Shown here in pieces: positions 4,230 through 47,959 of a DNA stretch of 64,000 bases. Numbering within the stretch: the first letter of the stretch is position 1; every line of letters starts with the position of its first letter. The stretch is from Candidatus Palauibacter sp. (GTDB lineage: Bacteria; Gemmatimonadota; Gemmatimonadetes; Palauibacterales; Palauibacteraceae), in NCBI RefSeq assembly GCF_965208055.1, contig NZ_CBDBNY010000004.1:320045-384044 (forward strand), in the 5' to 3' direction. The notes below the pieces were generated by a model. The model was not told where the DNA came from, did not search any database, and worked only from the letters and a program-made list of their open reading frames with translations. The translations under genes and the position numbers were made by a program.

Positions 4230-5345
4230 CTAATGCGACCGCGCGGTGGCGATGAGGTGATCGACGTGGTGGTCTTCGTTGCAATGCTTGGCAGTGGCCT
4301 CCACCTGCACCGTGACGTGCTGCAGGTTGAACTCGTTATAGGCGATCTCCCGGATCTTGCCGAGAAGACTCGTTGTGTCGTCCTCGTGCTCCGGATCCAC
4401 CAGGACATGGGCCGTGAGCGCGTCGTAACCCGGCGCGAGCGTCCACACATGGACGTCGTGGATCACCGTGACTCCGTCGATATCCTCGATCTGGTGGCAG
4501 AGCTTGTACACGTCGACGTGTTCCGGCGTCCCCTCGAGCAGCACGTGCACGACCTTGGCCAGCAGGCGCCACGTGCTGAGCAGGATCAGAATCCCGATGA
4601 GGACGCTGAGGATCGGGTCGGAGATGTACCAGTCGAAGGCCCACACGAGCACCCCGGAGACGATGACCGCCACCGAGCCCAGAATGTCGGCGATCACGTG
4701 GGCCAGGGCGCCTTCGACGTTCACACTGTGTTTCGCGGACCGGTGCAGCACCCAGGCGGCGGCGAGATTGGCGAGGAGCCCGAGCGTTCCGACGATCAGC
4801 ATCAGGCCGCCCTCGACCTCGGGTATGTCGCGAAAGCGGTGGTAGGCCTCGAAGATCACCCAGGCCGAGATCAGCCACAGTGTGAGGGCGTTGATGAGGG
4901 CCGCGAGGATCTCCAGCCGATGGTAGCCGAAGGTGCGCTCCACCGAGGCGGCGCGCGTGGCGAAATGCACGGCGAACAGCGCCAGGCCGATCGAGGCCGC
5001 ATCGGTGAGCATGTGTCCCGCGTCGGCGATGAGCGCCAAGCTTCCGGACAGGACGCCCCCGACCACCTCGACGAACATGAAGCTTGCGATGATCAGCAGG
5101 GCGACGGTCAGGTCGCGCTTGCTGGCGTTCCTCAGTTCCTCCGAATGATCGTGGGCGCCGAAAATCCCGTGGTGGTGGTGATGGTGGTCGTGATCGTGAC
5201 CGTGGTGATGGTGGCCATGCCCGTGATGATCATGCCCGTGATCGTGCGCGTGATCGTGGTCATGCCCATGATCGTGGTCGTGATCGTCGGCATGGCGGTC
5301 ATCATGATCGTGTCCGCGCCCGTCACGACCACCGCTGAGGTTCAT
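4230..5345 (-). CDS. Cation diffusion facilitator (CzcD/ZitB-like) with a very long His-rich N-terminal extension
   Basis: 371 aa. N-terminal ~60 residues are almost entirely H/D/G (HDHDDRHADDHDHDHGHDHDHAHDHGHDHHGHGHHHHGHDHDHHHHHH). The CDF core is then collinear with the 1249-2199 protein (HMLTDAAS, HDVHVWTLAPGYDALTAHVLV). Confidence 0.9.
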   Translation of the reverse strand: MNLSGGRDGRGHDHDDRHADDHDHDHGHDHDHAHDHGHDHHGHGHHHHGHDHDHHHHHHGIFGAHDHSEELRNASKRDLTVALLIIASFMFVEVVGGVLSGSLALIADAGHMLTDAASIGLALFAVHFATRAASVERTFGYHRLEILAALINALTLWLISAWVIFEAYHRFRDIPEVEGGLMLIVGTLGLLANLAAAWVLHRSAKHSVNVEGALAHVIADILGSVAVIVSGVLVWAFDWYISDPILSVLIGILILLSTWRLLAKVVHVLLEGTPEHVDVYKLCHQIEDIDGVTVIHDVHVWTLAPGYDALTAHVLVDPEHEDDTTSLLGKIREIAYNEFNLQHVTVQVEATAKHCNEDHHVDHLIATARSH

Positions 5346-5504
5346 GGGAAACCACCGCCATCCGAGATGGTTGACCTGATTAGCTGCCGGCGCAACAAGC
5401 TAGCGCCCGCCGCGAGTCTTGTCCAAGTACGGAGCCGTCGTCCGCAAGTCCACGACCACCTCCGCCCCTTCCTCAACTTCCACCCGCCGTGCCTCTTCCC
5501 CTCC

Positions 5505-5720
5505 GAGGTCGAGGGATCCCGGGGCCGCATCAAGAAGCGCTACCGTCGCGGGACGTCGCCACCCCCTACGACAGGCTCAAGTCCGTCGACGGCGCCGAAG
5601 ACTTCCTCCGGCCCGGCGTCACCTTCGAGGAACTCGACCGCCTCGCCGCCTCCACATCCGGTCTCCAGGCAGCCAAGGCCGTCCGCGAGGCCCGCCGCGT
5701 CCTCTTCCGCTCTCTCGACC
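5505..5720 (+). mobile_element. Second degraded copy of the IS transposase C-terminal fragment
   Basis: Nucleotide stretch 5520-5650 (ccgcatcaagaagcgctaccg...ccctacgaca.gctcaagtcc.tcgacggcgccgaagacttcctccggcccggcgtcaccttcgagga.ctcgaccgcctcgccgcc) is near-identical to 2880-3010. Both copies are preceded by gcgagtcttgtcca (2387 and 5421). Confidence 0.5.
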
Positions 5721-6010
5721 CCGCCACGCCGGTCGCCTGAGTCCCGGGTCCGCACACCGACTCGCGTCCCCGTTGCGCGACCCTCGCTCCGCCAAGGATT
5801 AGCCGGAAGAGAATCGAACGCCAACGGCCCCGCGGCCACGGCTCACGACTCCTCGTTCAGCCTCATCTCCGCATCGGAAAACACTCTGCCGCGGGGCGTA
5901 ACTGGCGCATGGGCGCGGCTACCTTGACTCGTTCCGCCCCCGAACGCAGCTTGAGTTAACGATCCGGACTGCCCTGTGACGGCACCCGGAAACACTCTGG
6001 CGGCATAGCC

Positions 6011-6367
6011 GTGAAGCTCATTTCTCCTCGACAGCCGCGGGATCTTCGCCGGTTCGGCGTCTTGGCCATCGTCCTCCTTCAGGCGATGGCTTTCGCCGTC
6101 CTGCCGGCGATGGATGCGGTGCTCGAAGCCGGAGCGTCGAGCACCGTCGCGCACGTCGAAGGGGAGCACAGCGAGCACTGCGACCCCGGACACAGCCACC
6201 TGCTGTGCCAGTTGTCTCGCACCGTGTCGCTGGGGTTCCCCCTCCTGATTCCGATCAATCTGCAGCTGGTACTCGAAACCGGCCCCGACACCCCGATCGC
6301 GAACGCCTGGCAACGCCGCCCGATGCCGCCCGGCGGGAGCGGTCCAAGAGCCCCTCCTCCAGCCTGA
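6011..6367 (+). CDS. Small secreted Cys/His-motif protein, DUF2946-like (typically found with TonB-dependent receptors)
   Basis: 118 aa. Has an N-terminal signal/TM (RRFGVLAIVLLQAMAFAVLPAM) followed by HVEGEHSEHCDPGHSHLLC. Sits immediately upstream of the TonB-dependent receptor on the same strand. The family assignment comes from motif recall, not a search. Confidence 0.4.
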   Translation: MKLISPRQPRDLRRFGVLAIVLLQAMAFAVLPAMDAVLEAGASSTVAHVEGEHSEHCDPGHSHLLCQLSRTVSLGFPLLIPINLQLVLETGPDTPIANAWQRRPMPPGGSGPRAPPPA

Positions 6368-6498
6368 CCCACTCCCGGGCAGATCGTCCCGGAAGCCCCC
6401 CGACCGCCCCATGGGCGGCGGATCGCAAATCTCCCGAAACACACGTTACCCGCTGATGCACTTCAGCGAGACGGCGCCGAGCTTCTCGAGCATGAGCG

Positions 6499-8757
6499 GT
6501 GACTGGCGCGTCTCGAAAAAGGCTGACCATGGTGACAAGGCGTCTGGCCGGTCTCATCACGGCCGTATTGGCAATGGCGATTGGTGCCATCGGCTTGTCC
6601 GCGCAGGTTGAGCATGCGGGCGAGATCGAGGGCGTCGTGCGCGCGGCCGACTCCGACGAGCCTCTCGCCGGCGCGGTGGTCTCCATCGCTGCGTCTGGGG
6701 GCCGGGCGGTCTCGCATGGCGACGGCACATTCCACCTTGCCGTGCCGGGCCTGCGCATCTACACGGTGCGCGTCGAACGCCTGGGCTACCGTACGGTCAC
6801 GCTGGAAGTGGATGCGTCGGCGGAAGAGATCGTGGTCGTGGAGATGGAAGCCAATCCCATCTCCCTGCCGGACCTCGTGGTCACGGGATCCGTGGTCGCG
6901 CGCGCGGCGAACGAAGTGTTGCGCCCAACCAGCGTATTCGCTGGGGAGGAGCTTCAGCGTCGCCTGGCCGGGACCCTGGCGGAGACGCTAGCCTCCGAGC
7001 CGGGACTGGCGGTGAGCAGCATGGGGCCGGGCTCGGCGCACCCGGTGATCCGGGGGCTCAGCGGAGACCGCATCCTGATGCTCGAGGACGGAGAACGGGT
7101 CGGCGACGAATTTGCGAGCGGTCCAGACCACGCCACGGCGCTCGACGCATCGTCGGCGCGCCGCGTCGAGGTCATCCGCGGACCGGGTGCGATTCTGTAC
7201 GGAAGCAACGCCCTGGGGGGCGTCATCAACGTCGTCCGCGACGACGTGCCCCCATCGGTGCCGCACCACCTGACGGGCGCGCTGACGGGTGCGTTCACTC
7301 TTCAGGGACAGAGCGTCAGCAACGCCGTGGGCGGAAGCCTGAATCTCACGCAGCGCCTGACGAGTCACATTCCCGTTCGGCTTGAACTCTCGCGTCGCAG
7401 CAGCGGCGATCTGACGACCCCGGTCGGACTCCTGCAGAACACGAACACGGATATCCGGGAGGTTTCCGGCGGAACATCGTGGGTGGACGACTGGGGCCAT
7501 GCCGGCGCGACCTTCCGCTACTACGGCAACGACTACGGCATCCCCGGCGGCTTCGTGGGAGGTCACGAGGCCGGGGTTCGCGTCGAGATGCAGCGCACGG
7601 CGGCCAGGTTGCGCGGTGTGCTCCGGCCTCCCGGGGCCTTCGAGAGCATCGAGATCGACGCGGGGCACACCTGGTACGAGCACAGGGAGATCGAACCCCC
7701 GGACATTCTGGGCACGCTCTACGAGCGCCAGACGGTGAGCGGCGAGATCCTGGCCCGCCACGGCGGCTGGGGCCCCGTTTCTTCGGGGGCGATGGGGACG
7801 CGGGCTTCCTGGGAGGACTTCGGGTTCGGAGGCGCGCTCTTCACGCCGAACTCCACGCAGACCTCGCTCGCCGTATTCGCGCTGGAGGAGGTCGATCTGA
7901 ATCCGATACGCCTGGAGGCGGGCCTCCGCTACGACTGGGTACGCGTGCGGCCCGACCGGGAGGACCCCTCATCCGACATCGGCCACATTCGCGCGAGGTC
8001 GTTCGGTGCGGCATCCGGGTCCCTGGGGGCTTTGGCAAAGCTCACGCGGAGCTTCACGGTGGGCGCTTCCGTCGCACGGGCCTTCCGCACGCCCAGCGTC
8101 AACGAACTGTTCTCGGAAGGTCCTCATCTGGCCGCCTACGCCTTCGAGGTTGGGAACCCGTCGCTCGAGACGGAGCGCGGGACCGGCATCGACCTGTTCG
8201 TCCGGATCACCGGCGACCGGCTGAACGCCGAGGTGACGTGGTTCCACAACGCCATCGCGGACTACGTTTTCCCGCTCGAAACCGGAGAGCTGAGCCGCGT
8301 GCGGCTGCCGATCTTCCAGTTCCAGGGCGAAGACGCGGTGCTCACCGGATTCGAGAGCGCGCTCGAGTGGGCGCCGATCGGGGATCTGACCGTGGAGGCG
8401 GTGGCTTCGTACGTCCAGGGCAGGATCAAGGCGACGGACGAACCGCTTCCCCTGATCCCGCCGCTGCAGGCGCGCTTCGCGGTTGGCTACGCGCCTCGCG
8501 ACTGGTTCGTCGAAGCCGAAACCCGGGTTGCGGCCCGCCAGGACCGGACGGGACCGTTCGAGACCGCAACGGATGGATATGCTGTTTTGGATCTCGCCGC
8601 CGGAGTACGGATCACGTTCATGGGGCGGCTGAACGTGATCACGCTGCGGGGGGAGAACCTTGGCAACGCCGTATACAGAAATCACTTGTCGCGCGTGAAG
8701 GAGATCATGCCCGAAGCGGGCAGGTCCATCAGCGTGGCATATCGCGTCGTCTTCTAG
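6499..8757 (+). CDS. TonB-dependent outer membrane receptor with an N-terminal carboxypeptidase-regulatory-like domain
   Basis: Signal peptide. CarbopepD_reg-like stretch (GVVRAADSDEPLAGAVVSI...YTVRVERLGYRTVTLEV). Plug domain (PGLAVSSMGPGSAHPVIRGLSGDRILMLEDGERV). Long beta-barrel with C-terminal aromatic ...AYRVVF. Alternative ATG start at 6529. Confidence 0.9.
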   Translation: MTGASRKRLTMVTRRLAGLITAVLAMAIGAIGLSAQVEHAGEIEGVVRAADSDEPLAGAVVSIAASGGRAVSHGDGTFHLAVPGLRIYTVRVERLGYRTVTLEVDASAEEIVVVEMEANPISLPDLVVTGSVVARAANEVLRPTSVFAGEELQRRLAGTLAETLASEPGLAVSSMGPGSAHPVIRGLSGDRILMLEDGERVGDEFASGPDHATALDASSARRVEVIRGPGAILYGSNALGGVINVVRDDVPPSVPHHLTGALTGAFTLQGQSVSNAVGGSLNLTQRLTSHIPVRLELSRRSSGDLTTPVGLLQNTNTDIREVSGGTSWVDDWGHAGATFRYYGNDYGIPGGFVGGHEAGVRVEMQRTAARLRGVLRPPGAFESIEIDAGHTWYEHREIEPPDILGTLYERQTVSGEILARHGGWGPVSSGAMGTRASWEDFGFGGALFTPNSTQTSLAVFALEEVDLNPIRLEAGLRYDWVRVRPDREDPSSDIGHIRARSFGAASGSLGALAKLTRSFTVGASVARAFRTPSVNELFSEGPHLAAYAFEVGNPSLETERGTGIDLFVRITGDRLNAEVTWFHNAIADYVFPLETGELSRVRLPIFQFQGEDAVLTGFESALEWAPIGDLTVEAVASYVQGRIKATDEPLPLIPPLQARFAVGYAPRDWFVEAETRVAARQDRTGPFETATDGYAVLDLAAGVRITFMGRLNVITLRGENLGNAVYRNHLSRVKEIMPEAGRSISVAYRVVF

Positions 8758-11579: not shown

Positions 11580-13349
11580 ATGAGTTATCGCTTCTTCGCG
11601 GGAATCCGGCCGTCCGGGGTCTGGCTCGCCGCCGCCCTGCTCGTCGTGCCGGCCTCCTGGCTGTGGACCGCAGCGCCCGCCGCGGCCCAGACGATCAGCG
11701 GCACCGTGCGGGAGACCGGCGGCGGCCGACCCATCGCGGGCGGCTTCATCAGCCTGCTGAACAGCGAGGGCGAGGCCATCGAGGCCGATTTTACGGCGGC
11801 CGACGGGATCTTCTCCCTCAGGGCGCCCGGCCCGGGCCGGTACCGGATTCGGGTGGAGCGAATCGGATACGCCAACTGGGTCACGGAGCCCTACGACGTG
11901 ACGGCCGGGCAGTCGCTCACGATTACGGTGGAAGTCCCGCCGGAACCCGTCCGGCTCGGCGACCTGCGCGTCGAAGTCAGCGGATCCTGCCTGGACGATC
12001 CGAGCGAAGGGGCCGCCCTCGCCACGGTTTGGGAGGAGGCGCGCAAGGCGCTCGAAACCGCGGTGTGGGCCGAGGGCCGGGGTGAGCTCACGTTTACCCT
12101 CCGGGAGTACCAACGCACGCTCGATCCGCGCCATCTCACGACGCTGGAGGTGGAGAGCCGCACGCGGCGGCACGTTCGACTGCCCCCGTTCCGGAGCCTG
12201 CCGGCCCGCCAGCTCACGACGTCGGGCTACGCGCTCGTGGAGGCGGACTCGGCCATCTTCTACGCGCCGGACGCGACGGTGCTGCTGTCGCCGGAGTTCC
12301 GGGACACCCAGTGTTTCGGCTTGGAGCGCGCCGAAGTCGACGACGAAGCGATGCTCGGGATCACGTTCCGCCCGCGGCGAGGGCGCGACGTGATCGACAT
12401 CGAGGGCACGCTCTGGCTCGCCGAGGAGAGCGCGGAACTGCGCCGCGTGCAGATCCGGTACCGCAACGTCCCGATGCCGCGAAACGCGCAGCGTCGGCAC
12501 ATCGGCGCGGATCTCACGTTCGACCGCCTGCCGGACGGCCCCTTCTATGTCCGCGACTGGTGGGTGCGGTTCCCGATCGGGAGCCGGAGCTCGCGCTTCA
12601 GGGCAGGTCTGTCCGGCCGTCTGGATCCGGTACTCGTGGCGTACCGCCAGGCGGGCGGCACGGTGACGGACGCCTTCGCGGGCGGCGTCTCGTTCGAGGT
12701 GGGCGAGGGTGCGGTCACGGGCGTGCTTCGAGACAGCGTGAGCGGCGAGCCGCTCGCGGGCGCGGAGATCGTCGTCCGGGACTGGGACGACGCGGCGGCC
12801 TTCCTGCCCCGGCCGCAAGCCGCGGACGTCCCGTTCAGCGCGGTCACGGATGAAGCCGGAGGCTTCGAGGTGGCGGGACTGCCGGATGGCGTCTACGCGT
12901 TGGGCGTGGATCACCCGAAGCTTCAGGCCGCGGGAGTGCGGCTCAACGAGACCCGCGTGGTCATCGAGGATCGAACCAGCGACCCGCTGGAACTGTGGAC
13001 GCCGTCCGCCGACGCTCTCTTCGCGCGCGTCTGTCCCCGGTCGTCACCTTATGGGAGTACGGGCGCCGTGGTCGGGTTCGCGCGCGATGCCGACACGGGG
13101 CTACCGCTGCCGAATATCGACGTCGAGGCCGTGTGGCGGGTGCAGCGGCTTCAGGGCACGCCGCGAAACGCCGTCACGTCCGAACAGTCGGAGTACGCCG
13201 GGGGCGCGTCCGACGAGCGCGGCCGGTTCACGATCTGCGGCGTCCCGCTCGGCGAGCCGGTCCTGCTGCGGCCTCGGGGCGTCGACGAGGCCGTGGAACT
13301 CGAACTCGTCACGCGCATCGCGTGGCGCGACGTGTTCGTCCAGCCGTAA
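11580..13349 (+). CDS. Secreted protein with multiple carboxypeptidase-regulatory-like (CarbopepD_reg) domains
   Basis: Signal peptide. Three stretches of the form ISGTVRE/GVLRDSVSGEPLAGAEIVV/GAVVGFARDADTGLPLPNIDV, typical of CarbopepD_reg beta-sandwiches. Confidence 0.55.
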   Translation: MSYRFFAGIRPSGVWLAAALLVVPASWLWTAAPAAAQTISGTVRETGGGRPIAGGFISLLNSEGEAIEADFTAADGIFSLRAPGPGRYRIRVERIGYANWVTEPYDVTAGQSLTITVEVPPEPVRLGDLRVEVSGSCLDDPSEGAALATVWEEARKALETAVWAEGRGELTFTLREYQRTLDPRHLTTLEVESRTRRHVRLPPFRSLPARQLTTSGYALVEADSAIFYAPDATVLLSPEFRDTQCFGLERAEVDDEAMLGITFRPRRGRDVIDIEGTLWLAEESAELRRVQIRYRNVPMPRNAQRRHIGADLTFDRLPDGPFYVRDWWVRFPIGSRSSRFRAGLSGRLDPVLVAYRQAGGTVTDAFAGGVSFEVGEGAVTGVLRDSVSGEPLAGAEIVVRDWDDAAAFLPRPQAADVPFSAVTDEAGGFEVAGLPDGVYALGVDHPKLQAAGVRLNETRVVIEDRTSDPLELWTPSADALFARVCPRSSPYGSTGAVVGFARDADTGLPLPNIDVEAVWRVQRLQGTPRNAVTSEQSEYAGGASDERGRFTICGVPLGEPVLLRPRGVDEAVELELVTRIAWRDVFVQP

Positions 13350-13386
13350 CGATCCGCCGCTCCCCGGCCTCCCGCGTCGCCGAGCC

Positions 13387-14727
13387 TCAGTCCGTGGATG
13401 GGCGCCGCGACTTCAGGTAGTCGAGCAGCAGGTTCGACATCGCGCGCATCCCGATCGAAATCGAGGCGTCGTCCGCGCGGAAGTCCGGCGTGTGGTGGCC
13501 CCCGGAGCCCAGCTCGGGATTCACGGAACCCAGCCGGTAGAAGAAGCCGGGCACCTCGTTCGCGAAGTAGGCGAAATCCTCGCCGCCCATCGTGGGTTCG
13601 ATGACGAGGAGGTTTTCGTCGCCCACGATCTTCGCCAGCGTCGGGGCCATCTGTGCGGTCAGCGCGCGGTCGTTGATCGTCGCCGGCGTGCCCCGGTCGT
13701 AGTCGAGGACGTAGCTGCCGCCGCCGGCCCGCGTGATCCCGTCGAGAATCTCGTCCATGCGCCGTTCGACGGCGTCCCGCACGTCGGGGTTGTAGGTCCG
13801 GACCGTGCCCTCGAGCCACATTTCCTGAGGGATGATGTTGAAGCGCTCGCCGCCCCGCATGACGCCGACCGTGATCACGCTGGGCTCGAGCGGAGAGAGG
13901 TTGCGCGACCGGATGGTCTGGAAGGCGGTCACGGCCTGCGAGGCCATCACGACGGGATCGATGCTCGTGTGAGGCTGGGCTCCGTGCGCCTGCCTGCCGA
14001 CGATCCGGATCTTGAAGTGATCGACCGCCGCCAGCGCGGGGCCGGGCGTATAGCCGAGCGTCCCGACGTCCATCGAAGAGAAGGTGTGGAGTCCGAAAAT
14101 GGCGGAGGGGACGACGCCTTCCAGCGCGCCTTCCCGGACCATGAGTTCGGCGCCGCCTTCCTCGCCCGGGGGTGGTCCTTCTTCGGCTGGCTGGAAGATG
14201 AACTTGATCGTGCCGGGGATCCGGTCGCGCATCGAGGCGAGGACCGAGGCCACGCCGAGCTGCACGGCGGTATGCACGTCGTGGCCGCACGCGTGCATCA
14301 CGCCGACTTCCTGGCCGCCGTACTCGGTGCGGACCGTGGAGGCGAAGGAATACCCGGTGTTCTCGGTGACGGGGAGCGCGTCCATGTCCGCCCGAACCGC
14401 GACCACGTCGCCGGGCAGGCCGCCTTTCAGGATCCCGATGACTCCGGTGTGCGCGACCCCCTCGATGACTTCGTCGAAGCCCAGTTCACGCAGATGGGCC
14501 GCGACCATGGCCGCGGTCTCGAACTCGCGGTTGCCGAGTTCGGGGAACTGGTGGATCCGGTGGCGCATCTCGACGATCCGGTCGAGCACGCCGTCGATCG
14601 CCGCGTCCACGGCGGGATCCTGCCCCGCCAGCGGAGTCACGAGCGTTCCGGCAAGCGTTCCGGCGAGGAGCGCGAGGGAAAACGGAGTTCGGGGAGTACC
14701 CATGCTTCTTCCTGGTCGCGGATTCAC
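13387..14727 (-). CDS. M20D family amidohydrolase (N-acyl-L-amino acid amidohydrolase / hippurate hydrolase-like)
   Basis: Motifs HACGHDVH, FQPAEEG, GGEDF. Signal peptide present. Confidence 0.85.
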   Translation of the reverse strand: MNPRPGRSMGTPRTPFSLALLAGTLAGTLVTPLAGQDPAVDAAIDGVLDRIVEMRHRIHQFPELGNREFETAAMVAAHLRELGFDEVIEGVAHTGVIGILKGGLPGDVVAVRADMDALPVTENTGYSFASTVRTEYGGQEVGVMHACGHDVHTAVQLGVASVLASMRDRIPGTIKFIFQPAEEGPPPGEEGGAELMVREGALEGVVPSAIFGLHTFSSMDVGTLGYTPGPALAAVDHFKIRIVGRQAHGAQPHTSIDPVVMASQAVTAFQTIRSRNLSPLEPSVITVGVMRGGERFNIIPQEMWLEGTVRTYNPDVRDAVERRMDEILDGITRAGGGSYVLDYDRGTPATINDRALTAQMAPTLAKIVGDENLLVIEPTMGGEDFAYFANEVPGFFYRLGSVNPELGSGGHHTPDFRADDASISIGMRAMSNLLLDYLKSRRPSTD

Positions 14728-39526: not shown

Positions 39527-40245
39527 CGCGGGTGCGAGGCACGAGGGGAGGATCGGCGCGCGCGGCTGCGGCGGCGGCACTGGCGCTGGTGGCGGCACCG
39601 GCGCTGGCGGGCCTGTCCGTGGCGGCGTCGGCGGCGGCGCAGACGACGGACACGGTATTCGTCCGGCTGGATGCCGATGGCGCCGCCCACGTTCGGCAGG
39701 GCCTCCCGCCGGATAGCGGCGCGGTGCGGGCATTCGCGATTCGGATCGAGCACCAGACCCTGTCGCTGACGGAGGCGGCGCCGGACGGCGGGCCTCCGCC
39801 CGACGTCGATGCCGCGCTGACCCCGGTCGACGGCGCGTACCGCATCGACGTGGTCTCCGACGCGCCGGTCGTCGTGTCCTACACCGTGCGGAATCCGGTG
39901 CGCGGACGGCTGGACCGGATCCCCCTCTTCGTCGCCGGCCGCGAGGCCGAGGAGACCGTCGTACAGGAGGTCACGGCGCCGTGGCTGATTCGGCTGGAGG
40001 GAGATCCGGACGTACTCGATGCGCTGGACCTGTCGACCAGCCTGCCGCGCTTCGTCCGCACCGGCGATGACGTCGTGACGGCCACCCTGTCGAGCGTGCC
40101 GGGGCTGTTGCGGCTGTCCCGCGGGGGCGCGCTCTCGTTCGCGCGCATCGCCGACTTCGCGGTCCTCGCCCTGCTGCTGACCGGCGCGATCTGGACGTGG
40201 CGCAACGCGCGAGTCCGCCGCCACGGCGCTGGAGCCGCCCGGTGA
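39527..40245 (+). CDS. Hypothetical secreted protein with a C-terminal membrane anchor
   Basis: N-terminal Ala-rich signal and a C-terminal TM (FAVLALLLTGAIWTW). The start is uncertain because the frame is open upstream through the M28 gene. Confidence 0.35.
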
Positions 40246-40457
40246 CGATCATCCTGATCGCGGCGGGCTTCTTCGCCCTCGGCCTCACCGTGATCCTTCT
40301 CTTCCGGAGGACCATCCGCGCCGACGACGAGTTGGACCGCCGCTGGGCGGAGGTCGTCGCACAGCGCTCCCGACGCGGCGACTCGCCCTCCGCGCCCTCC
40401 GCGCTCGGCGAGACCGCGGAACCCGAGGGGCCCGAACCACCCGGCGCGCCGACATGA
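40197..40457 (+). CDS. Small single-TM protein translationally coupled to the SSS transporter
   Basis: TM segment VTIILIAAGFFALGLTVILLF. Its stop overlaps the transporter ATG (ATGA at 40454). Small subunits like this (DUF3311/DUF4212 style) are known companions of SSS permeases. Confidence 0.4.
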   Translation: MAQRASPPPRRWSRPVTIILIAAGFFALGLTVILLFRRTIRADDELDRRWAEVVAQRSRRGDSPSAPSALGETAEPEGPEPPGAPT

Positions 40458-41902
40458 GCGACGTCTTTTTCGTCGTCCTCGGCGTCTACGTGGCCATCAT
40501 CATGGGCATCGCGATCTGGAGCTACTTCCAGACCGAGACCGAAGTCGACTTCCTCGCCGCCGGCCGCTCGATCGGCCCCATCGTCGGCGGCGCCGTCCTC
40601 GCCGCCACGCAGATCTCCGCCGGCACCTTCGTGGGCACCGCCGGCCGCCACTACCTGGCCGGCGTCTCCTGGGTCTTCCCCTGGCTCGGCCTCTGGACGG
40701 GGTGGCTCGTGTGCGCCTTCTTCGTCGCCCCGAAACTGCGGCGGCTCGGCGCGCTCACCGTCCCCGACTACATCTCCGCCCGCTACGGCAGCCCGAAGGC
40801 CGGAGCGCTCGCCGGCGTCCTCATCGTCGTGGCCTACACGATCTACCTCGTGGCGCAGTTCCAGGCGGGCGGCGAGATCGCGGAAGTGGTGTTCGGCATC
40901 CGCCCGCTCACCGCGATGCTCATCATCGTGGCATCGACCGCGCTCTACACGCTCCTCGGCGGGGTCCGGTCCAGTTCCTACATCGATTTCCTGCAGACGC
41001 TGATCATGGTCTCGGCGCTCATCGTGGCCGTCCCCGTCCTCCTCAACCAGGTCGGCGGCGGCAGCCCCGTCGCGGCGGTCGAGCGGTCGCTCGACTTCCT
41101 GGACACGCTCGATGACCGTCTCGTGGGCTGGTACTACTCACCGCGGGAACTCCTCGCGTTCGCGATCGCGTTCGGACTCTCGATCGCGGCGGCGCCATAC
41201 GAACTCACCCGCTTCTACTCGATGCGGGATGAGCGCACGGTGCGGAAGGCCATCTTCGTGGCGATCGGCTTCCAGGTCGTGATCGCGACCAGCATCATGT
41301 CGATCGGCATGCTCATGCGGGTACTGTTCCCGAACCTCCCCTCCCAGGACCAGGCGACGGCGACGATGGCGCTCCACGTGCTGCCTCCCGTCGTCGGCGC
41401 GCTGCTGCTGGTCGCCATGCTGTCGGCGATCATGTCGACCGTGAACTCGATCCTCCTCGTGACCGGCGCGGGTGTCGCGCACGATCTGTACGGGAAGTTC
41501 ATCCGGCCCGACGCGAGCCAGAAGCACCTCGTGAACGCGAACCGGGTGGCGATCGTCGTCCTCGCGATCATCCCCCTCTTCTTCGCGCTGCAGAAGCTGG
41601 GGGATGTCCAGGGCATCGTTCTGGAACAGGCGAAGTTCATCGCCTCCTTCTTCTTCGTCCCCATCGTCATCGGTCTCAACTGGCGGCGGGGGACGGCGAA
41701 GGGCGCGGTCGCCTCGATGATCGGGGGCTTCCTGGCCTGCCTGGTGTGGACGCTCTGGTTCCAGGAACACTACTTCGATCTGTACGGGATCGACTCCGTC
41801 GAACTGGGTGTCGGTGCGAGCCTGATCCTGTTCATCATGGTTTCGCTGATGACGAAACCGAATCCCGGCCAGACGCTGGAGCCGTTTTTCGGAAACAAGT
41901 GA
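40454..41902 (+). CDS. Sodium:solute symporter (SSS) family transporter
   Basis: 482 aa with 13 TM helices. SSS motifs FLAAGRS and GG..S.IDFLQT. Confidence 0.9.
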   Translation: MSDVFFVVLGVYVAIIMGIAIWSYFQTETEVDFLAAGRSIGPIVGGAVLAATQISAGTFVGTAGRHYLAGVSWVFPWLGLWTGWLVCAFFVAPKLRRLGALTVPDYISARYGSPKAGALAGVLIVVAYTIYLVAQFQAGGEIAEVVFGIRPLTAMLIIVASTALYTLLGGVRSSSYIDFLQTLIMVSALIVAVPVLLNQVGGGSPVAAVERSLDFLDTLDDRLVGWYYSPRELLAFAIAFGLSIAAAPYELTRFYSMRDERTVRKAIFVAIGFQVVIATSIMSIGMLMRVLFPNLPSQDQATATMALHVLPPVVGALLLVAMLSAIMSTVNSILLVTGAGVAHDLYGKFIRPDASQKHLVNANRVAIVVLAIIPLFFALQKLGDVQGIVLEQAKFIASFFFVPIVIGLNWRRGTAKGAVASMIGGFLACLVWTLWFQEHYFDLYGIDSVELGVGASLILFIMVSLMTKPNPGQTLEPFFGNK

Positions 41903-41919: not shown

Positions 41920-42699
41920 ATGTCGGACGTACTGATGCGCCTGGTGGAGGAACTGAACGCGGGCACGGTCCGGGTGGTGGATCTCACGATCCCTCTCGGT
42001 CCCGATACCGTCGTCATCGATCTGCCTCCGATGTTCGCGCCATCGAAGGGCGTGACGATCGAGCGGATCTCGATGTATGACGACGACGGGCCGGCCTGGT
42101 ACTGGAACAACCTCACGCTCGGCGAACACACGGGGACGCACTTCGACGCCCCGATCCACTGGGTGACGGGGAAGGATGTGCCCGATGGGACGACGGACAC
42201 GATCCCGCCGCGGAAGTTCGTCGGCCCGGCGTGCGTCATCGACGTGGAGGCGGCGGTCGACGCGGACCCCGACTTCCTCCTCGCTCCGGCGGGGCTCGAG
42301 GCGTGGGAGGCGGAGCATGGACGCGTGCCCGAGGGCGCCTGGGTTTTTCTGCGCACCGGGTGGAGCCGGAGGGAAGGGAAGGAGGCGTTTCTCAACGTGT
42401 CGGAAGATGGCCCGCACTCGCCGGGCTTTCACCAGGAGACCTCGGCCCTGCTGGCCCATGACCGCGGGGTGCTCGGCGTCGGAGTGGAGACGGTCGGCAC
42501 CGACGCGGGCCAGGCGGGAGGGTTCGATCCGCCGTTCCCGAACCACGGGATCATGCACGGGGCGGGGAAGTTCGGCCTCGCGAGCCTGTGCAACCTCGAC
42601 CGGTTGCCCCCGACGGGCGCCGTGGCGGTCGCCGCCCCGCTCAAGATCGTGGACGGGAGCGGGAGCCCGCTGCGCGTGATCGCGCTGGTCCCGGCGTAG
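41920..42699 (+). CDS. Cyclase family protein (kynurenine formamidase/arylformamidase-like)
   Basis: Metal-binding motif HTGTHFDAPIHW (HxGTHxDxPxH). Confidence 0.8.
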   Translation: MSDVLMRLVEELNAGTVRVVDLTIPLGPDTVVIDLPPMFAPSKGVTIERISMYDDDGPAWYWNNLTLGEHTGTHFDAPIHWVTGKDVPDGTTDTIPPRKFVGPACVIDVEAAVDADPDFLLAPAGLEAWEAEHGRVPEGAWVFLRTGWSRREGKEAFLNVSEDGPHSPGFHQETSALLAHDRGVLGVGVETVGTDAGQAGGFDPPFPNHGIMHGAGKFGLASLCNLDRLPPTGAVAVAAPLKIVDGSGSPLRVIALVPA

Positions 42700-42721: not shown

Positions 42722-43534
42722 ATGGAGCGCAGGGAGCGGCGGGGATCCGCCTACCGGAAGGTCTTGAGGGCGCTGGACGAGGCCATCTTCTGCCTGGAGC
42801 GGGAGCCCTTGGGGGATCCGGATGACCATGGCGCGGAGCAGCAGGGAATCTTCCGCCTCGGAGAAGCGGGCGGAATCGCCTTCGCCAGCCGGTTCGCGGG
42901 AACCGGCCCCGGGGCCCTCTTCGACGAGATCTCCGATGCGGCCGAGACGGAGGATCTGGATCGGATCCGCCAGATACGGAGCCTGGTGGAATCGAGGCTG
43001 CGGTCGGGCGACGGCGCGACCGCCGGAGCCTCGGGAGGGGATGCGCTCGACTGGGATGCCGGCTACCTGCAGCTCCTCGCGGTCCTGAACGAGTCGCGGC
43101 GAGCCCGGGACGACGGAGACGCGCATCGATACTGGATCATGGCGGGTTTCCTCGCCGGCTTCCTTCGGCGGGACGCGAGACCGGGGGAATACGAGCCCGA
43201 ATCCCTGCGCGACGAGGTCATCGCCGCCTGCAACGAGGGATGGGGCGAGACCCTGTGGACGGAATGGGAGGCGATTCGGGACGAGTGGCTGGCCGGCGAT
43301 TCGCCGGGAGCCCCGGAGGACCCGGACCTTCTCCTCAGGTGGCTCGGTCTGCGACTGGCCGCCGCGGAATCCGTGAGCGGTTCGCTCGTTCCGAGCCAGG
43401 TCGGCGGAACGGACGACCATCGAAGCGGGGGGCAGTCGGACGATGGGGCGCGCTTCCTGTGCTGCGAACGCTCGACTCGCCGCGCGCAGAACTTCGGCGC
43501 CAGAATCGCGCGCCGCGACGAATATGGGGGATAA
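42722..43534 (+). CDS. Uncharacterised protein, paralogue A of a tandem pair
   Basis: 270 aa with no recognisable domain. Shares N-terminal (RKVL.ALD.A.F..ER.P...D.D) and C-terminal (S.RRAQNFG.R.A.RD) motifs with the next gene. Confidence 0.5.
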   Translation: MERRERRGSAYRKVLRALDEAIFCLEREPLGDPDDHGAEQQGIFRLGEAGGIAFASRFAGTGPGALFDEISDAAETEDLDRIRQIRSLVESRLRSGDGATAGASGGDALDWDAGYLQLLAVLNESRRARDDGDAHRYWIMAGFLAGFLRRDARPGEYEPESLRDEVIAACNEGWGETLWTEWEAIRDEWLAGDSPGAPEDPDLLLRWLGLRLAAAESVSGSLVPSQVGGTDDHRSGGQSDDGARFLCCERSTRRAQNFGARIARRDEYGG

Positions 43535-44423
43535 TCGCTCCGAGTGGGAGCAGTCCATTCGCCGGAAAGTGCTGAAGGCGCTGGATGACGCCCTCTTCCA
43601 GTTCGAGCGGGTTCCCACGGGGGGTCGCGATGAAGACGATGCCGGACGGTCGGCAACGTTCCATCTCGGGATGGCCGGTGGGTTTGCTTTCCTGGGCCGT
43701 CTGCCGGGGATTGAGTCGGATGCCCTGTTCGACGACATCTCCGATGCCGCCGAGGAGGGGGATTTCGGTCGTGTCGGCCGGATCCGGCGGCGTGTCCAGG
43801 CCAACTTGAGCTCCGATCGGCCCTGCGATAAGAGTGACCCGGGCGAGGGATCTCTCGACTTGGCAACCGGTTTCCTTCAGATGATCCCCGCCCTGGGCGA
43901 GGCGCGCCGGGCGTGGAGGGAGGGGGACAGATCCCGCCACTCGCTGATGCTGGGCTTTCTCGTCGGCCTCCTCCACTCGCATCCGATGCCGTACAGGCTC
44001 GGCACGCTGTCCGACGCGGTGATCGCCATCCATGCCCGCGACGCCACGTGCGCTCGCAAGTGGGTGGAGGCCGAGTCGATTGAGGCGCGTGAGTACCGGG
44101 GACGCCCGGCGAACACCGACCCGCGGGCCCTTCTCATGAGGTGGCTGGGCGACCGCTTGGCCGCCGGCCATCGGTTCAGCGAACCGTTGTGGTGTCACTC
44201 CGTCGATGAGACGGAGGACGAGCGTCGGGAGCGGGAAGCCGGGGAGAGGGCGTACTTCAAGAGACAGGAGACCTCCAGCCGGCGCGCGCAGAACTTCGGA
44301 AAGAGGCTTGCCGCCAGGGACACGGAGGGCATCTGGATCCCGGTCAGCTACTCGATAAACCGGGCTCTGGTGCTCGGACCTCACGAGGAGGAGCGCCGGG
44401 CTGACGGCGAGCACGAGACCTGA
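43524..44423 (+). CDS. Uncharacterised protein, paralogue B of the tandem pair
   Basis: 299 aa. Start overlaps the end of paralogue A by 11 nt. Shares the motifs described for paralogue A. Confidence 0.5.
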   Translation: MGDNRSEWEQSIRRKVLKALDDALFQFERVPTGGRDEDDAGRSATFHLGMAGGFAFLGRLPGIESDALFDDISDAAEEGDFGRVGRIRRRVQANLSSDRPCDKSDPGEGSLDLATGFLQMIPALGEARRAWREGDRSRHSLMLGFLVGLLHSHPMPYRLGTLSDAVIAIHARDATCARKWVEAESIEAREYRGRPANTDPRALLMRWLGDRLAAGHRFSEPLWCHSVDETEDERREREAGERAYFKRQETSSRRAQNFGKRLAARDTEGIWIPVSYSINRALVLGPHEEERRADGEHET

Positions 44424-44510: not shown

Positions 44511-44879
44511 ATGTACTCCAGGCAAGAGGAGCGTCCAGTGAGGGATGACGGAAACGCAGGCAAGACCGTGAAGGTGGCGTCGATTCTGCTCGCGCTGCTC
44601 TTCCTCCTCAACGGAGGGATGAAGGTCTTCGGGATGATGGTCGACGAGTTTGCGCTGTGGGGCTATCCGGCGTGGTTCCAGTACCTGATCGGCGTCGTGG
44701 AGGTGCTGGCGGGGGTCGGTTTCCTGAGGCGTCCGACGCGGTTTCTCGCGTCGGCCGTGGTCATCGTGATCATGGCGGGCGCCATCTTCACCCTCGTGAG
44801 GGCGGGTGCGGCGGCGCAGGCCGCGGTTCCGGCCGTGGCGCTGATCCTGGCCCTGTTCGTGGGCAAGAACTCGCGCTAA
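44511..44879 (+). CDS. DoxX family membrane protein
   Basis: 122 aa with four TM helices and a DoxX-like sequence pattern (LLALLFLLNGGMKVFG...FQYLIGVVEVLAGVGFL). Confidence 0.75.
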   Translation: MYSRQEERPVRDDGNAGKTVKVASILLALLFLLNGGMKVFGMMVDEFALWGYPAWFQYLIGVVEVLAGVGFLRRPTRFLASAVVIVIMAGAIFTLVRAGAAAQAAVPAVALILALFVGKNSR

Positions 44880-44930: not shown

Positions 44931-46256
44931 TCAGCCGCCTTCGGCGGTCTCCAGCATCTGGTCGCCGACGAGCCGCACCACGCGGACGCGCTGAATGTCG
45001 AGTTCGTCCCGATCGATGTAGGCCAGCAGGCCGTCCGGCCCGAACGCGGCCGGGATCCGGAGTCCGTCGGCGGCGATGGTGCCGAAGTACTGCCCGTCCG
45101 GCGTGAGAATGTCCGTGGGCCCGGGCTCTCCCATCAGAGCCGAGCGCTGAACCCAGATGCGGTCGCTCCAGTCCACGGCCAGTATCGAGATGACCGGCAC
45201 TTCCTCGGGGAAGGTCATGCTTTCGACCCGGTCTTCCCGCATGCGGCGCATCGCCTCCGGGTCGGGACCGCTGGGGCGTCCGCCGCCCGCTCCCGCCGAC
45301 ACCGTGGCCGAGATGATCATGGCGGTTGCGCCTCCGCCCCCTCCGCCTCCGCTCCCGCCCTCGGCCAGGGCGGCGAGCCGGCGTTCGCGCTCCCCATCCC
45401 GGATCTCGTCGGTCACGGCGACCGGCGCGATGGGCCGCTCGAGCGTGCCCGTCACCTGACCCGAGGCATCGAGGATCTTGATCCGATAGCCGACCGAATC
45501 GGCCAGAACTACGCGGCCGTCTCCGAGGACACCGAAACTCAGGGGAAGGGGGAAGGCCTCCATCCCGGACATAATGATCCGCATGTCTCCGGTCTGAGTG
45601 TCGGTGTCCTCGACGGGTGGCCCCGCCCAGGCCGAATGGAATTCGTCCTGCGTCCCGTCGAGCCGGAACTGCCCGATGGGTCGGCCTTCCGGCTCCTCCT
45701 CTTCCTCCCCTCCTCCCATGAACGCGCCGAATGATCGGCTGATCATCCCTGCGGAGAGGAGGCTGTGGTCCGGCATGGGGTACATCCGCGGGCCGGGCAT
45801 CCCGGTTTGGAAAGTGAAGCTGGCCTCCTGGAGGGATTCACCCTCGCGGCTGAAGACCTTTATCCCCCGATTCATGTCGTTGACGGCGATGCGGCCATCG
45901 CCGAGCACCGCCAAGCCTACCGCCTGGTTGAGTTCCCCGGGTCCCTCTCCCTTGTTGGAGATGGTACGCACGAACTGGCCGGCCCGATCGACGACGACGA
46001 CGTGGCCGGCGTCATTATCGAGGATGAAGAGCGAGCCATCGTCACCGAAGGCAACGCCCCTCACGCTGCCGAACATCTCCCACGCGGCCCCGTCGAGCAC
46101 GCCAACGGTGTAGACCTCCTCCACGCCGGGCTGGAGGGGGATGTCGGGGCTGTCGAGCCCCGCGGTGGCGGGATTTCCGTCCCCGCCGCAACCAGCGGCC
46201 GCAAGCGGGGAGGCAATAAGGACGACGTGACGCGTGTGGATGCGGATGCTGCGCAT
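44931..46256 (-). CDS. Beta-propeller (NHL/TolB-like) repeat lipoprotein, tandem paralogue 1
   Basis: ATG at 46256 gives MRSIRIHTRHVVLIASPLAAAGCGG (lipobox). Repeated blade segments (GSLFILDNDAGHVVVVDRAGQFVRTI, GRVVLADSVGYRIKILDASGQV). Gly-rich linker. Shared C-terminal end. Confidence 0.6.
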   Translation of the reverse strand: MRSIRIHTRHVVLIASPLAAAGCGGDGNPATAGLDSPDIPLQPGVEEVYTVGVLDGAAWEMFGSVRGVAFGDDGSLFILDNDAGHVVVVDRAGQFVRTISNKGEGPGELNQAVGLAVLGDGRIAVNDMNRGIKVFSREGESLQEASFTFQTGMPGPRMYPMPDHSLLSAGMISRSFGAFMGGGEEEEEPEGRPIGQFRLDGTQDEFHSAWAGPPVEDTDTQTGDMRIIMSGMEAFPLPLSFGVLGDGRVVLADSVGYRIKILDASGQVTGTLERPIAPVAVTDEIRDGERERRLAALAEGGSGGGGGGGATAMIISATVSAGAGGGRPSGPDPEAMRRMREDRVESMTFPEEVPVISILAVDWSDRIWVQRSALMGEPGPTDILTPDGQYFGTIAADGLRIPAAFGPDGLLAYIDRDELDIQRVRVVRLVGDQMLETAEGG

Positions 46257-46369
46257 GCGGCTTCCTTCCATGTGACAGGGGCGGCGCCGGTGACGGCGAC
46301 GCATCCGGGCGTAGGCCGGATACCGGGTGCGACAGTGGAGGCCACGGCAACCGTTGCCCGCGGCCGGAA

Positions 46370-47959
46370 TCATGGGGCATCCTCCAGCAGTTCATCCGCT
46401 GCGAGCCGCACCACGCGGATGCGCTGAATGTCGAGTTCGTCCCGATCGATGTAGGCCAGCAGGCCGTCCGGCCCGAACGCGGCCGGGATCCGCGGGCCCT
46501 CGGGCGCGATCGTCCCGAGGTAGCGTCCATCCGCGGTGAGAATGTCGGTGGGGCCTGGTTCGCCGGGAAGCGCCGTGCGCTGGACCCAGATCCGGTCGCT
46601 CCGGTCCACCGCGATGCTCGCGATGACCGGAATCACGTCGAGAAAGTTCATTTGGCGGATGCGATCTTCCGCCCGGCGAATGGCCTCTCGCATCGCGTTC
46701 CGCCTGACCTCCGGGCTGACGTCGCCGGGGTGCCCGCCGGCCTGTTGCACGGACACCGTCCCGCCACCGGTTCGAAGCGCCTCGATGCGGCGCTGGCGCT
46801 CCGTCTCCCGTATCGCACCGGTCACCGGGGCCGGAGTCAGGCGCCGTTCAAGGATGTCCGATACGCGACCCGACGAATCCAGGACCTTCAGGCGATAACC
46901 AATCGAATCGGCCAGGACCGTGCGGCCGTCGCGAAGCACGCCAAGGCTCAACGGAAGACCGAAGGCTTGCACGGGACTCGTCACGATCCTGGTATCCTGT
47001 GACCCGGCGCCGCTCTCAAGCGCCATCGGAGAAGGGTAATCCCAGGCGGCATGGAAGACCTCACGAGTCCCGTCGAGCCGAAACCGCGTGATCGGCCGAC
47101 CCTCGTCCGCTCCAATCATGGTGGAAACCGAGCCCCCGATAAGTTCGGGCGAGAGGAGGCTGTGGTCCGGCAGGGCGTAGATCGGCGATCCGGGCATGCC
47201 CTCGGCGACGCTGAACGGGACGGCATCCAGGAACTCACCGTCACGGCTGAAGAGCTGCAGCCCCGGCTTCGCGAGATCGTTGACGCCGATCCTGCCGTCG
47301 CCGAAGACGACAAGCGCAATCGGCTGGCCAAGCTCGCCGGGCCCGTCGCCGCGGCGCGAGATCGTGCGGACGAACTCGCCGGCGGAATCGATGACTACGA
47401 TGTGACCGGCGAGGTCATCGAGGATGAACAGCGTGCCGTCGGCGTCGAATGCGACATCCGACACGTAGCCGAACATCTCCCACGCAGCGCCTTCGACCAC
47501 GCCGACCGTGAAGACTGCTTCGACAGCGGAGGAGATGGGCCTGTCATCATCGGCGACCTGGGCAGCGACGGGGCTACCGCTCCGGGCCGCGACGGCGAGC
47601 GACGGGGCTACCGCTCCGGGCCGCGACGGCGAGCGACAGGGCGACCAGAGCCTCCCGACTGATGTGGTCGTGAGCACGCATGGTACCACCTCACCATGAA
47701 GGGTCCGCCCCGACGTCCGAAAGGATCTCCCGGCACCGGTCGGACGCTGCTGGGACAGGTGCGCGTACCCGGAGGGTTGTCCGCGACCCGCTATGTCGGG
47801 GGTCGCCGCGTGCTTGCGAGGCGGAGTCCCGGGATGAGCGCCGGGGTACTTCGCCGCGGAAATCCGCTCGGCGAGGCGCATCGACCCGAGGCCGGTCCAG
47901 TGCGGCCACTGCCCGGAGGCCGCGACCCCCAACAGGTAGAAGACCGCCCACATGGACAT
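46370..47959 (-). CDS. Beta-propeller repeat protein, tandem paralogue 2 (N-terminal boundary uncertain)
   Basis: Collinear with paralogue 1 (GTLFILDDLAGHIVVIDSAGEFVRTI...). The N-terminal ~100 codons of the listed ORF are low-complexity and probably not all translated. Confidence 0.5.
   Translation of the reverse strand: MSMWAVFYLLGVAASGQWPHWTGLGSMRLAERISAAKYPGAHPGTPPRKHAATPDIAGRGQPSGYAHLSQQRPTGAGRSFRTSGRTLHGEVVPCVLTTTSVGRLWSPCRSPSRPGAVAPSLAVAARSGSPVAAQVADDDRPISSAVEAVFTVGVVEGAAWEMFGYVSDVAFDADGTLFILDDLAGHIVVIDSAGEFVRTISRRGDGPGELGQPIALVVFGDGRIGVNDLAKPGLQLFSRDGEFLDAVPFSVAEGMPGSPIYALPDHSLLSPELIGGSVSTMIGADEGRPITRFRLDGTREVFHAAWDYPSPMALESGAGSQDTRIVTSPVQAFGLPLSLGVLRDGRTVLADSIGYRLKVLDSSGRVSDILERRLTPAPVTGAIRETERQRRIEALRTGGGTVSVQQAGGHPGDVSPEVRRNAMREAIRRAEDRIRQMNFLDVIPVIASIAVDRSDRIWVQRTALPGEPGPTDILTADGRYLGTIAPEGPRIPAAFGPDGLLAYIDRDELDIQRIRVVRLAADELLEDAP
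47562..47640. repeat. Tandem direct repeat (~34 bp x 2)
   Basis: ggggctaccgctccgggccgcgacggcgagcga occurs twice in tandem, within the 5' low-complexity part of gene 46370-47959. Confidence 0.7.

Follow-up and report, generated by a model that had tools for sequence, protein, structure and literature searches.

What two adjacent, clearly related genes of the Gemmatimonadota bacterium Candidatus Palauibacter sp. encode, and whether the two belong together at all, is the question raised by a stretch of 64,000 nucleotides (assembly GCF_965208055.1, contig NZ_CBDBNY010000004.1, positions 320,045 to 384,044), which is referred to below as the window. The two genes, here called A and B, lie one behind the other on its forward strand, downstream of a transporter gene and a hydrolase gene, and the evidence assembled below leaves little doubt that they represent a real, selected and novel protein family that behaves as a swappable cassette. 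Coordinates without a locus name are those of the window.

42722 to 43534, forward strand: gene A, 270 amino acids (aa), a short family member without the C-terminal tail helix and always found in the slot that follows the cyclase gene
43524 (ATG) to 44423, forward strand: gene B, 299 aa, a long family member with the tail helix, IWIPVSYSINRALVL, behaving as an accessory cassette
43524 to 43534, forward strand: overlap of 11 nt, ATGGGGGATAA, the end of A over the start of B

Two genuine paralogues

A and B are 41% identical across 272 columns (BLASTP, E 1e-42), which is far beyond chance similarity, and judged from this alignment they are true paralogues. A preliminary description of the window had presented them as adjacent, homologous genes of 270 and 299 aa that overlap by 11 nt, and both the open reading frames (ORFs) and the alignment bear this out; the motifs that it quoted as common to the two proteins are all found in A and in B, the N-terminal one as YRKVLRALDEAIFCLEREP in A and as RRKVLKALDDALFQFERVP in B. 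The plus-strand frames of A and B display a coding pattern of GC1/GC2/GC3 = 0.73/0.54/0.82 in a genome of 68-70% GC, and the long antisense ORFs that overlap them lack the GC pattern of coding sequence. A purine-rich stretch resembling a ribosome-binding site, GGGGAAGGGGG, is located upstream of A, and an identical copy of B (P0001) is on record as "hypothetical protein [Candidatus Palauibacter sp.]". Furthermore, the ORFs are uninterrupted in about 30 loci of relatives, and comparison with orthologues gives ratios of nonsynonymous to synonymous divergence (dN/dS) of 0.28-0.44 for A and 0.28-0.39 for B. Purifying selection therefore acts on A as well as on B, though less strongly than on the flanking genes for the sodium:solute symporter (SSS; mostly 0.02-0.08, range 0.02-0.14), the cyclase (mostly 0.07-0.16) and an M28 peptidase (0.11-0.20). 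The concern that the frames might not be conserved in relatives, or not be under selection, is thereby answered. In addition, the absence of transmembrane segments stated in the preliminary description is confirmed by Kyte-Doolittle profiles, whose maximum 19-residue mean is below 1 in A and in B, and the two proteins appear to be cytoplasmic.

A recombining slot in a conserved gene string

The genes around A and B are of known families, and the Pfam matches agree with the earlier placement of an SSS transporter and a cyclase upstream on the same strand.

40454 to 41902, forward strand: SSS transporter (PF00474, E 3e-68), upstream flank
41920 to 42699, forward strand: cyclase-family hydrolase (PF04199, E 2e-39), upstream flank, with the start at 41920 set by orthologue length
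43521 to 44404, no strand assigned: presence/absence segment, essentially gene B, missing in relatives that have A only (blastn)
44511 to 44879, forward strand: DoxX-like membrane protein (PF13564, E 3e-12), downstream flank

The order M28 peptidase, small protein, SSS, cyclase, slot, DoxX is shared by 20 syntenic loci, the window among them. SSS is 97-99% identical in most of these loci and 90-92% in the two most divergent ones (L019 and L025), the cyclase is 92-98% identical, and the identity of the slot genes ranges from 54 to 97% for A and from 54 to 90% for B. DoxX follows the slot wherever the sequence of a syntenic locus reaches that far, except in L026, where it was not detected. In all 20 loci an A-clade gene comes directly after the cyclase, with 22 nt between the cyclase stop codon and the start of A. 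A and B occur together in eight of them (the window, L006, L008, L009, L011, L019, L048 and L050), A occurs alone in the other 12, and B-like genes are found alone in at least 15 loci elsewhere.

The boundaries of the variable segment are sharp. In blastn comparisons, homology between the window and L024 ends at 43520 and restarts at 44405, and homology with L027 restarts at 44526. An analogous event can be read from L030 (7700-7960) aligned with L008 (6878-8062), where a clean loss of 917 bp between copies of a 10-bp repeat (GGAGGCGGTC / GGAGGCGATC) has removed B and created a chimeric A gene that ends in the last five codons of B and is of the same A type as in L008. B is gained and lost by recombination at the gene tails, and neither A nor B needs the other.

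These observations bear on the idea, implicit in the preliminary description, that A and B depend on each other, as an obligate heterodimer or in the manner of a toxin-antitoxin pair. The 11-nt overlap suggests translational coupling, and the 4-nt overlaps in four other pair loci (L006, L008, L009 and L011) point the same way; in L019 the two genes are separated by a gap of 109 nt. An obligate pair is nevertheless very improbable and was rejected on distribution, as A stands alone in more than half of the syntenic loci, B-like genes stand alone in many genomes, L030 lost B cleanly while keeping its A type, and the alleles of A and B assort independently. Of the conserved tandem duplication originally proposed, the paralogy and the selection on both genes stand, whereas pairing is not obligatory. 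In a neighbour-joining tree computed without bootstrap, the B genes of the slot branch among solitary copies from non-syntenic loci of Longimicrobiales and Bryobacterales, and they fall outside a monophyletic A clade whose basal members (L003 and L020) still carry the C-terminal tail helix. This is not the picture expected of a recent local duplication or of an obligate pair.

Allele exchange is visible even between the closest strains. L050 is near-identical to the window in SSS (99.4%) and cyclase (98.4%), and its B is just 90% identical, with a synonymous divergence (dS) of 0.165 against 0.02-0.055 in the flanks; even this close to the window, dS in B is 3-8 times as high as in the flanks. 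Compared with L048, the pattern is split between the two genes, since A is 56% identical with a dS of 0.93, the flanks have a dS of 0.32-0.42, and B is 82% identical with a dS of 0.23, lower than in the flanks. The GC3 of A and B is 0.82 versus 0.88-0.93 in the flanks. Because dN/dS is about 0.3 throughout and dS is inflated as well, the excess divergence is attributed to imported alleles, and positive selection was rejected as its cause. The alleles of A and B assort independently of each other and of the flanks, and the conserved gene string thus contains, in the slot, a hypervariable site at which cassettes recombine.

SSS and the A/B genes are probably in the same operon. No terminator-like site was found between the cyclase gene and A, and a promoter and terminator scan of the region, together with Rfam, revealed no RNA family and no informative signals. 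Such an arrangement would fit a role of A and B as accessories of the transporter/amidohydrolase pathway, acting as a chaperone, a subunit or a second enzyme on the imported compound. It agrees with the fixed position of A behind the SSS and cyclase genes, and also with two family members outside the slot, one adjoining a different PF04199 cyclase (L002) and one (P0155, in L044) overlapping an Amidohydro_3 gene by 4 nt. Even so, we consider an accessory role improbable, given that the pathway genes evolve much more slowly than A and B (dN/dS 0.03-0.15 versus 0.3) and that their dS is discordant with that of A and B, that B is dispensable, and that most family members are nowhere near such genes.

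Some further features of these loci were noted in passing. An ORF of 86 aa (40197-40457) overlaps the SSS start by 4 nt, is present in all syntenic loci at 72-92% identity and probably encodes a small, membrane-located subunit of the transporter. DoxX is duplicated in some relatives, with two DoxX_2 genes in L003 (8939-9730) and L025 (7735-8453), which indicates that the variable zone reaches slightly beyond A and B. In L044, a ThyX (Thy1) gene at 5345-6916 with a faint intein-splicing Pfam match between its Thy1 halves lies directly upstream of P0155.

A rare family recorded in two phyla

Neither protein belongs to a catalogued family. Searches with A and B against Pfam-A 2025, NCBIfam 20.0 and PADLOC 2.0 returned no family at E <= 1, PHROGs v4 gave noise alone (E 0.06), and the PDB sequences gave no match at E <= 10 by phmmer or by profile hmmsearch. 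When 49 family members were scanned singly, no recurrent Pfam match emerged; the one match to Terpene_syn_C_2 (E 0.07) was set aside as noise, the DDxSDxxE motif being unfit for the NSE/DTE spacing of terpene synthases. A viral origin was checked for in the viral contigs of IMG/VR, where no relative of the family was found.

Among 5.8 billion proteins searched, 90 homologue clusters were obtained for B and 57 for A, and these fall into two cleanly separated clades, A and B, while a full hidden Markov model scan of 1.84 billion representative proteins retrieved just 91 clusters at E < 1e-3. Named records among the homologues are few and come from metagenome-assembled genomes (MAGs) of Palauibacter/Gemmatimonadales and from one Bryobacterales MAG. 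A scan of one genome per species yielded 28 loci, all of them in MAGs (Palauibacter, Longimicrobiales, other Gemmatimonadota and Bryobacterales/Acidobacteriota), and a metagenome scan added 7 further loci. The family is rare and, where its carriers are named, limited to Gemmatimonadota and Bryobacterales MAGs, that is, to two phyla. Species epithets and isolate tags of the named carrier MAGs point to sponges and corals, and the metagenome records MKWU, LXNI and LXNJ are presumably of sponge origin as well. The order Palauibacterales has been described as abundant in sponges, corals and marine sediments (PMC10469786).

Four motifs and a predicted all-alpha fold

The family core of about 230-300 aa carries four motifs, FHxGEAGGIA, DDISDAxE, RxxLMxGFxxGL and QNFG[LK]R, for which the superfamily-wide consensus reads FHxGEAGGIA, (L/C)DDISDAYE, R(Y/F)ALMxGFxxGLM and RWVQNFGLRxAR. 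Their positions in the two genes are as follows.

42851 to 42883, forward strand: A motif 1, FRLGEAGGIAF (superfamily consensus FHxGEAGGIA)
42917 to 42946, forward strand: A motif 2, LFDEISDAAE, the acidic face of a helix, in which Ser is invariant and Glu nearly so
43127 to 43165, forward strand: A motif 3, RYWIMAGFLAGFL, with an invariant Arg and a GxxxG pattern
43478 to 43516, forward strand: A motif 4, RRAQNFGARIARR (superfamily consensus RWVQNFGLRxAR)
43659 to 43691, forward strand: B motif 1, FHLGMAGGFAF
43725 to 43754, forward strand: B motif 2, LFDDISDAAE
43935 to 43973, forward strand: B motif 3, RHSLMLGFLVGLL
44280 to 44318, forward strand: B motif 4, RRAQNFGKRLAAR
44331 to 44375, forward strand: B C-terminal tail helix, IWIPVSYSINRALVL, a conserved superfamily feature that the A clade has lost

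In B numbering, the invariant and near-invariant residues are G49, A51, G53, D70, S73, D74, E77, R138, Q256, N257 and R261. The RRAQNFG element had been taken in the preliminary description for part of a charged, possibly nucleic-acid- or ribosome-binding C-terminus. This interpretation is not supported, in view of the acidic isoelectric points of A and B (4.7 and 5.9) and a net charge of just +1 over the last 60 residues, and a basic nucleic-acid-binding tail was rejected on charge. It is also at odds with the conservation of QNFG across the whole superfamily; as one of the four superfamily-wide core motifs, RRAQNFG is a core element and not a tail, and this pattern of conservation suggests that QNFG is part of a functional site.

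AlphaFold2 models of B (pLDDT 85.5, pTM 0.87) and of the compact distant member P0184 (pLDDT 88.5, pTM 0.88) are both all-alpha, with about 12 helices. Foldseek comparison of the two models with the PDB gave nothing significant (best E 0.57-0.78), nor did that of one model with BFVD (best E 0.07), and the TM-scores were at most 0.33 overall. The weak matches, which include FliS four-helix bundles, EfeO/imelysin, phospholipase C and nuclear-receptor ligand-binding domains, have TM-scores of 0.15-0.3 and were dismissed. The A/B family is thus a small, uncatalogued family without a detectable structural relative in the searched libraries, which also sustains the earlier statement that it holds no nameable domain, and none of the searches assigns it to a well-characterised family. 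Its newness is at the level of the protein family and of the predicted fold, and carries no claim to a new kind of system.

Domain architectures and candidate enzymatic partners

A profile built from distant members retrieves about 124 further clusters, and these place the family domain, here termed X, in several architectures. Besides stand-alone X, there are fusions of X to C-terminal TPR repeats (35 clusters), fusions of X to a C-terminal DSP-type phosphatase (PTPase; PF22784/PF22785, with the HCx5R motif intact; 15 clusters) and fusions of an N-terminal XRE-type helix-turn-helix (HTH) to X (3 clusters of 120).

One explanation suggested by these architectures is that X is a ligand-sensing regulatory domain of the one-component type, which binds a small molecule and controls a fused HTH at its N-terminal side or a phosphatase or TPR output at its C-terminal side. 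As stand-alone proteins, A and B would then bind small molecules or have a regulatory function, and might sense what the transporter and cyclase upstream produce. The position of X relative to HTH, phosphatase and TPR indeed follows the rule of HTH-sensor and sensor-enzyme proteins, alternative output domains and stand-alone forms are all represented, and polar residues are strongly conserved in an otherwise fast-diverging helical domain. The invariable, co-oriented position of A behind the cyclase would also fit such a sensor. However, X shares no fold or sequence likeness with any known sensor domain or family, HTH fusions are rare, and the turnover, allele swapping and mobile-element contexts of the family are unusual for a metabolic sensor. 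A sensor is therefore, in our assessment, unlikely.

The phosphatase is joined in several relatives by a second enzyme, an ADP-ribosylglycohydrolase/ADP-ribosylhydrolase (ARH). In L034 and L042, an X-PTPase fusion adjoins a convergent ARH gene; in L036, X-TPR, ARH and a stand-alone PTPase are found together in a defence island; and in L043, X is located beside a PTPase with an ARH 2 kb off, among AbiJ, ScoMcrA and PD-(D/E)XK genes. A B-clade gene in L014, 57% identical to B of the window, lies 1.7 kb from a fused PTPase-ARH protein, and L045 holds a further X-PTPase fusion. ARH genes are within about 2 kb of family relatives, mostly next to them, in four independent contexts, and the partner ARHs are mutually orthologous (47-80% identical), with Thermus 2CWC (E 3e-74) and Serratia Tri1 6DRE (E 2.7e-70) as the nearest structures. 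Tri1 is a DraG-like protein-arginine ADP-ribosylhydrolase that confers immunity to the toxin Tre1 (PMC8120803). On the phosphatase side, the partners are DUSP23/CDKN3-like, and thus eukaryote-like, and PF22785 is described by Pfam as a PTPase family of polymorphic toxin systems. As X, DSP-type phosphatase and Tri1-like ARH occur in every permutation, the domain would be expected to act together with phosphate- and ADP-ribose-removing enzymes.

Two of these loci deserve a separate description. The L014 fusion (3770-5251, forward strand) is a protein of 494 aa that combines a DSP-type phosphatase (PF22784) with a DraG/Tri1-like ARH (PF03747), and by its domain content it looks like a two-eraser enzyme. 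The apparent defence island around the trio in L036 (493-6711 and 10579-15305) comprises DUF6361, a 600-aa protein of no named family, a 1068-aa DEAD-helicase-like protein, DUF499 and an SMC_N/AAA_15 ATPase.

The possibility that X is itself a divergent ARH (PF03747, likewise all-alpha) was rejected, because hhalign assigns a probability of 0.2% to a match between the family profile and the partner ARHs, and Foldseek returned no ARH structure although the PDB holds many.

Mobile and defence neighbourhoods of scattered copies

Outside the Palauibacter slot, family members are found in a different setting. A census of 96 neighbours includes integrases, IS110, DDE transposases, RVT_1 and AbiEii, and scattered B-like copies are further accompanied by IstB, a group-II-type reverse transcriptase and toxin-antitoxin (TA) pairs. 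The non-syntenic copies lie beside AbiJ, McrA, DUF499, SMC/AAA_15, TA genes, AbiEii and the PADLOC candidate PDC-S11, as counted without a genome-wide background. PDC-S11 occurs near family members in L005 and L039, a type IIG restriction-modification-like Mrr/ResIII gene stands beside B-like genes in L004 and L012, and ubiquitin-like conjugation genes (Prok-E2_E, ThiF/Prok-JAB, Multi_ubiq) are also found near scattered copies. One Bryobacterales MAG contains at least three family copies, two of them 38 kb apart. The mobile and defence-related locations, the genomes with several copies and the apparent spread across phyla point to a possible role in conflict or immunity.

Several details of these neighbourhoods were recorded on their own account. 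The PDC-S11 matches are to NucS_C-like homologues in two unrelated contexts, L005 9433-10494 (E 6e-41) and L039 4650-5816 (E 3e-66). In L004, the Mrr_cat/ResIII gene directly adjoins the B-like gene, and 3 kb away a ubiquitin-like operon on the reverse strand (11838-14013; ThiF with faint Prok-JAB, Prok-E2_E and Multi_ubiq) is possibly a defence system of the Bil type; the B-like gene and these neighbours have a GC3 of about 0.72-0.84 versus about 0.92 in the upstream core genes. Two unannotated neighbours, L002 10711-11565 and L005 7448-8008, were tested as hidden paralogues and are not paralogues.

The same evidence could be explained if A and B were non-enzymatic orphan immunity proteins that bind and neutralise interbacterial toxins. 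The slot would then be a small array of acquired interbacterial defence genes, with PTPase and ARH as immunity modules collected alongside. Like the orphan immunity arrays of polymorphic toxin systems and acquired interbacterial defence islands, the family comprises tandem, diverged paralogues with presence/absence polymorphism and allele exchange, its members are small, cytoplasmic, all-alpha proteins, and it appears to be distributed across phyla within what is apparently one habitat. The neighbouring Tri1-like ARH represents a known enzymatic type of immunity, the Pfam assignment of PF22785 to polymorphic toxin systems fits as well, and so does the permutation of X, PTPase and ARH, the PTPase-ARH fusion included. 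Unlike such arrays, however, no examined locus has an adjacent toxin or secretion-system gene, no member matches a Pfam Imm family, and A is fixed and embedded in a housekeeping operon in all syntenic loci. Moreover, the domain is fused to enzyme, TPR or HTH partners, and its invariant polar motifs look more like a catalytic or ligand site than like a plain surface for binding. For these reasons, simple toxin-binding immunity is regarded as quite unlikely.

Ranked below it, and above the accessory role discussed earlier, is the proposal that the family consists of host-interaction effectors of sponge and coral symbionts, comparable to eukaryote-like TPR and ankyrin proteins, with phosphatase and ARH acting on host signalling. 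The sponge- or coral-type names of the carrier MAGs, the great rarity of the family elsewhere, the abundance of Palauibacterales in sponges (PMC10469786), the frequent TPR fusions, the eukaryote-like partner phosphatases and the fast evolution are all compatible with symbiosis. Effectors would be expected to leave the cell, yet the proteins are acidic and apparently cytoplasmic, they lack a signal peptide and any recognisable signal for secretion, and genes of secretion systems are missing from their surroundings. Furthermore, the neighbours are bacterial defence and mobile genes and do not resemble effector loci.

A possible role in ADP-ribosylation-linked conflict

The reading that we favour, tentatively, is that A and B are a cytoplasmic module of a conflict or immunity toolkit linked to ADP-ribosylation, present in the slot as two alternative specificities. 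Judging from the fusions and neighbours of the relatives, a DSP-type phosphatase and a Tri1/DraG-like arginine-ADP-ribosylhydrolase would be the enzymes with which the domain acts, and the domain itself would most likely be a small enzyme or a ligand-binding domain. The acidic helix face (D-D-x-S-D-x-x-E), the invariant Arg of motif 3, and the Arg and the Q-N pair of motif 4, together with small-residue packing motifs, lead one to expect a cation- and phosphate-binding catalytic or ligand site. This putative site would recognise or reverse a nucleotide-derived modification, and A and B would each supply one of the two specificities.

The closest known systems include the ADP-ribosylation conflict systems of the Tre1-Tri1 type; relatives of A and B are found near DraG/Tri1-like ARHs, and the family is likewise variable and horizontally mobile. 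The family differs from them in being neither an ARH nor, being all-alpha, of an ART-like fold; no ART toxin was seen nearby, and the window itself has no ARH. A second connection is with the DSP-PTPase modules known from polymorphic-toxin proteins and from the NAD/ADP-ribose "Swiss Army Knife" (PF22784, PF22785 and PF22741), since phosphatases of this family recur beside X, either fused to it or encoded by a neighbouring gene, whereas A and B have no phosphatase domain and the N-terminal partner domain X is not catalogued in Pfam. A literature search on the phosphatase family name, "Swiss Army Knife", and ARH with phosphatase or sponge returned nothing specific to the A/B family.

Several observations weigh against a role in ADP-ribosylation-linked conflict. 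Both in the window and throughout the 20 syntenic loci, the slot has no ARH and no PTPase within about 7 kb, the functional link rests on relatives that are just 25-57% identical to A and B, and the ARH association is seen in just four independent contexts of about 25. No toxin gene (ART, Rhs, PAAR or LXG) and no Imm family is among the annotated neighbours of any copy, no PADLOC model matches the family or its ARH and PTPase partners, and the absence of relatives from IMG/VR counts on the same side. In Palauibacter, the surroundings of the gene are those of ordinary housekeeping functions, with a transporter and a hydrolase gene that apparently share its transcript, and selection on it is purifying, with no sign of gene-wide positive selection. 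Finally, the negative fold comparison is confined to the PDB and BFVD.

A more far-reaching version, which we regard as doubtful, would make the QNFG domain a new catalytic or nucleotide-sensing fold in a three-part module with the DSP-type phosphatase and the Tri1/DraG-like ARH, reversing or sensing ADP-ribosylation in microbial conflict within sponges and corals, and the slot a hot spot where A/B-type specificities are swapped between strains and even phyla. If the link to ADP-ribosylation is true, the family would be a new element in the biology of bacterial ADP-ribosylation and would enlarge the conflict or immunity repertoire of host-associated microbiomes; it would also illustrate gene sharing among symbionts of different phyla in an apparently common host habitat. 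If it is false, a well-delimited new domain with clear motifs remains. In either case, the domain is compact, confidently foldable and outside the searched family and structure libraries, its candidate partners, a DSP-type phosphatase and an arginine-ADP-ribosylhydrolase, can be tested, and the slot offers a natural experiment in which alleles are swapped at one genomic site between flanks that are 92-99% identical. The cassette behaviour and the phosphatase/ARH link are a worthwhile, testable lead rather than a solved case.

A second tandem pair downstream

A further pair of tandem paralogues is located just downstream of DoxX, on the reverse strand. The two genes (44931-46373 and 46370-47959) overlap by 4 nt, and their products of 480 and 529 aa share 55% identity (E 8e-147). 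The syntenic locus L003 contains both genes as well, and its orthologues have faint Pfam matches to NHL repeats.

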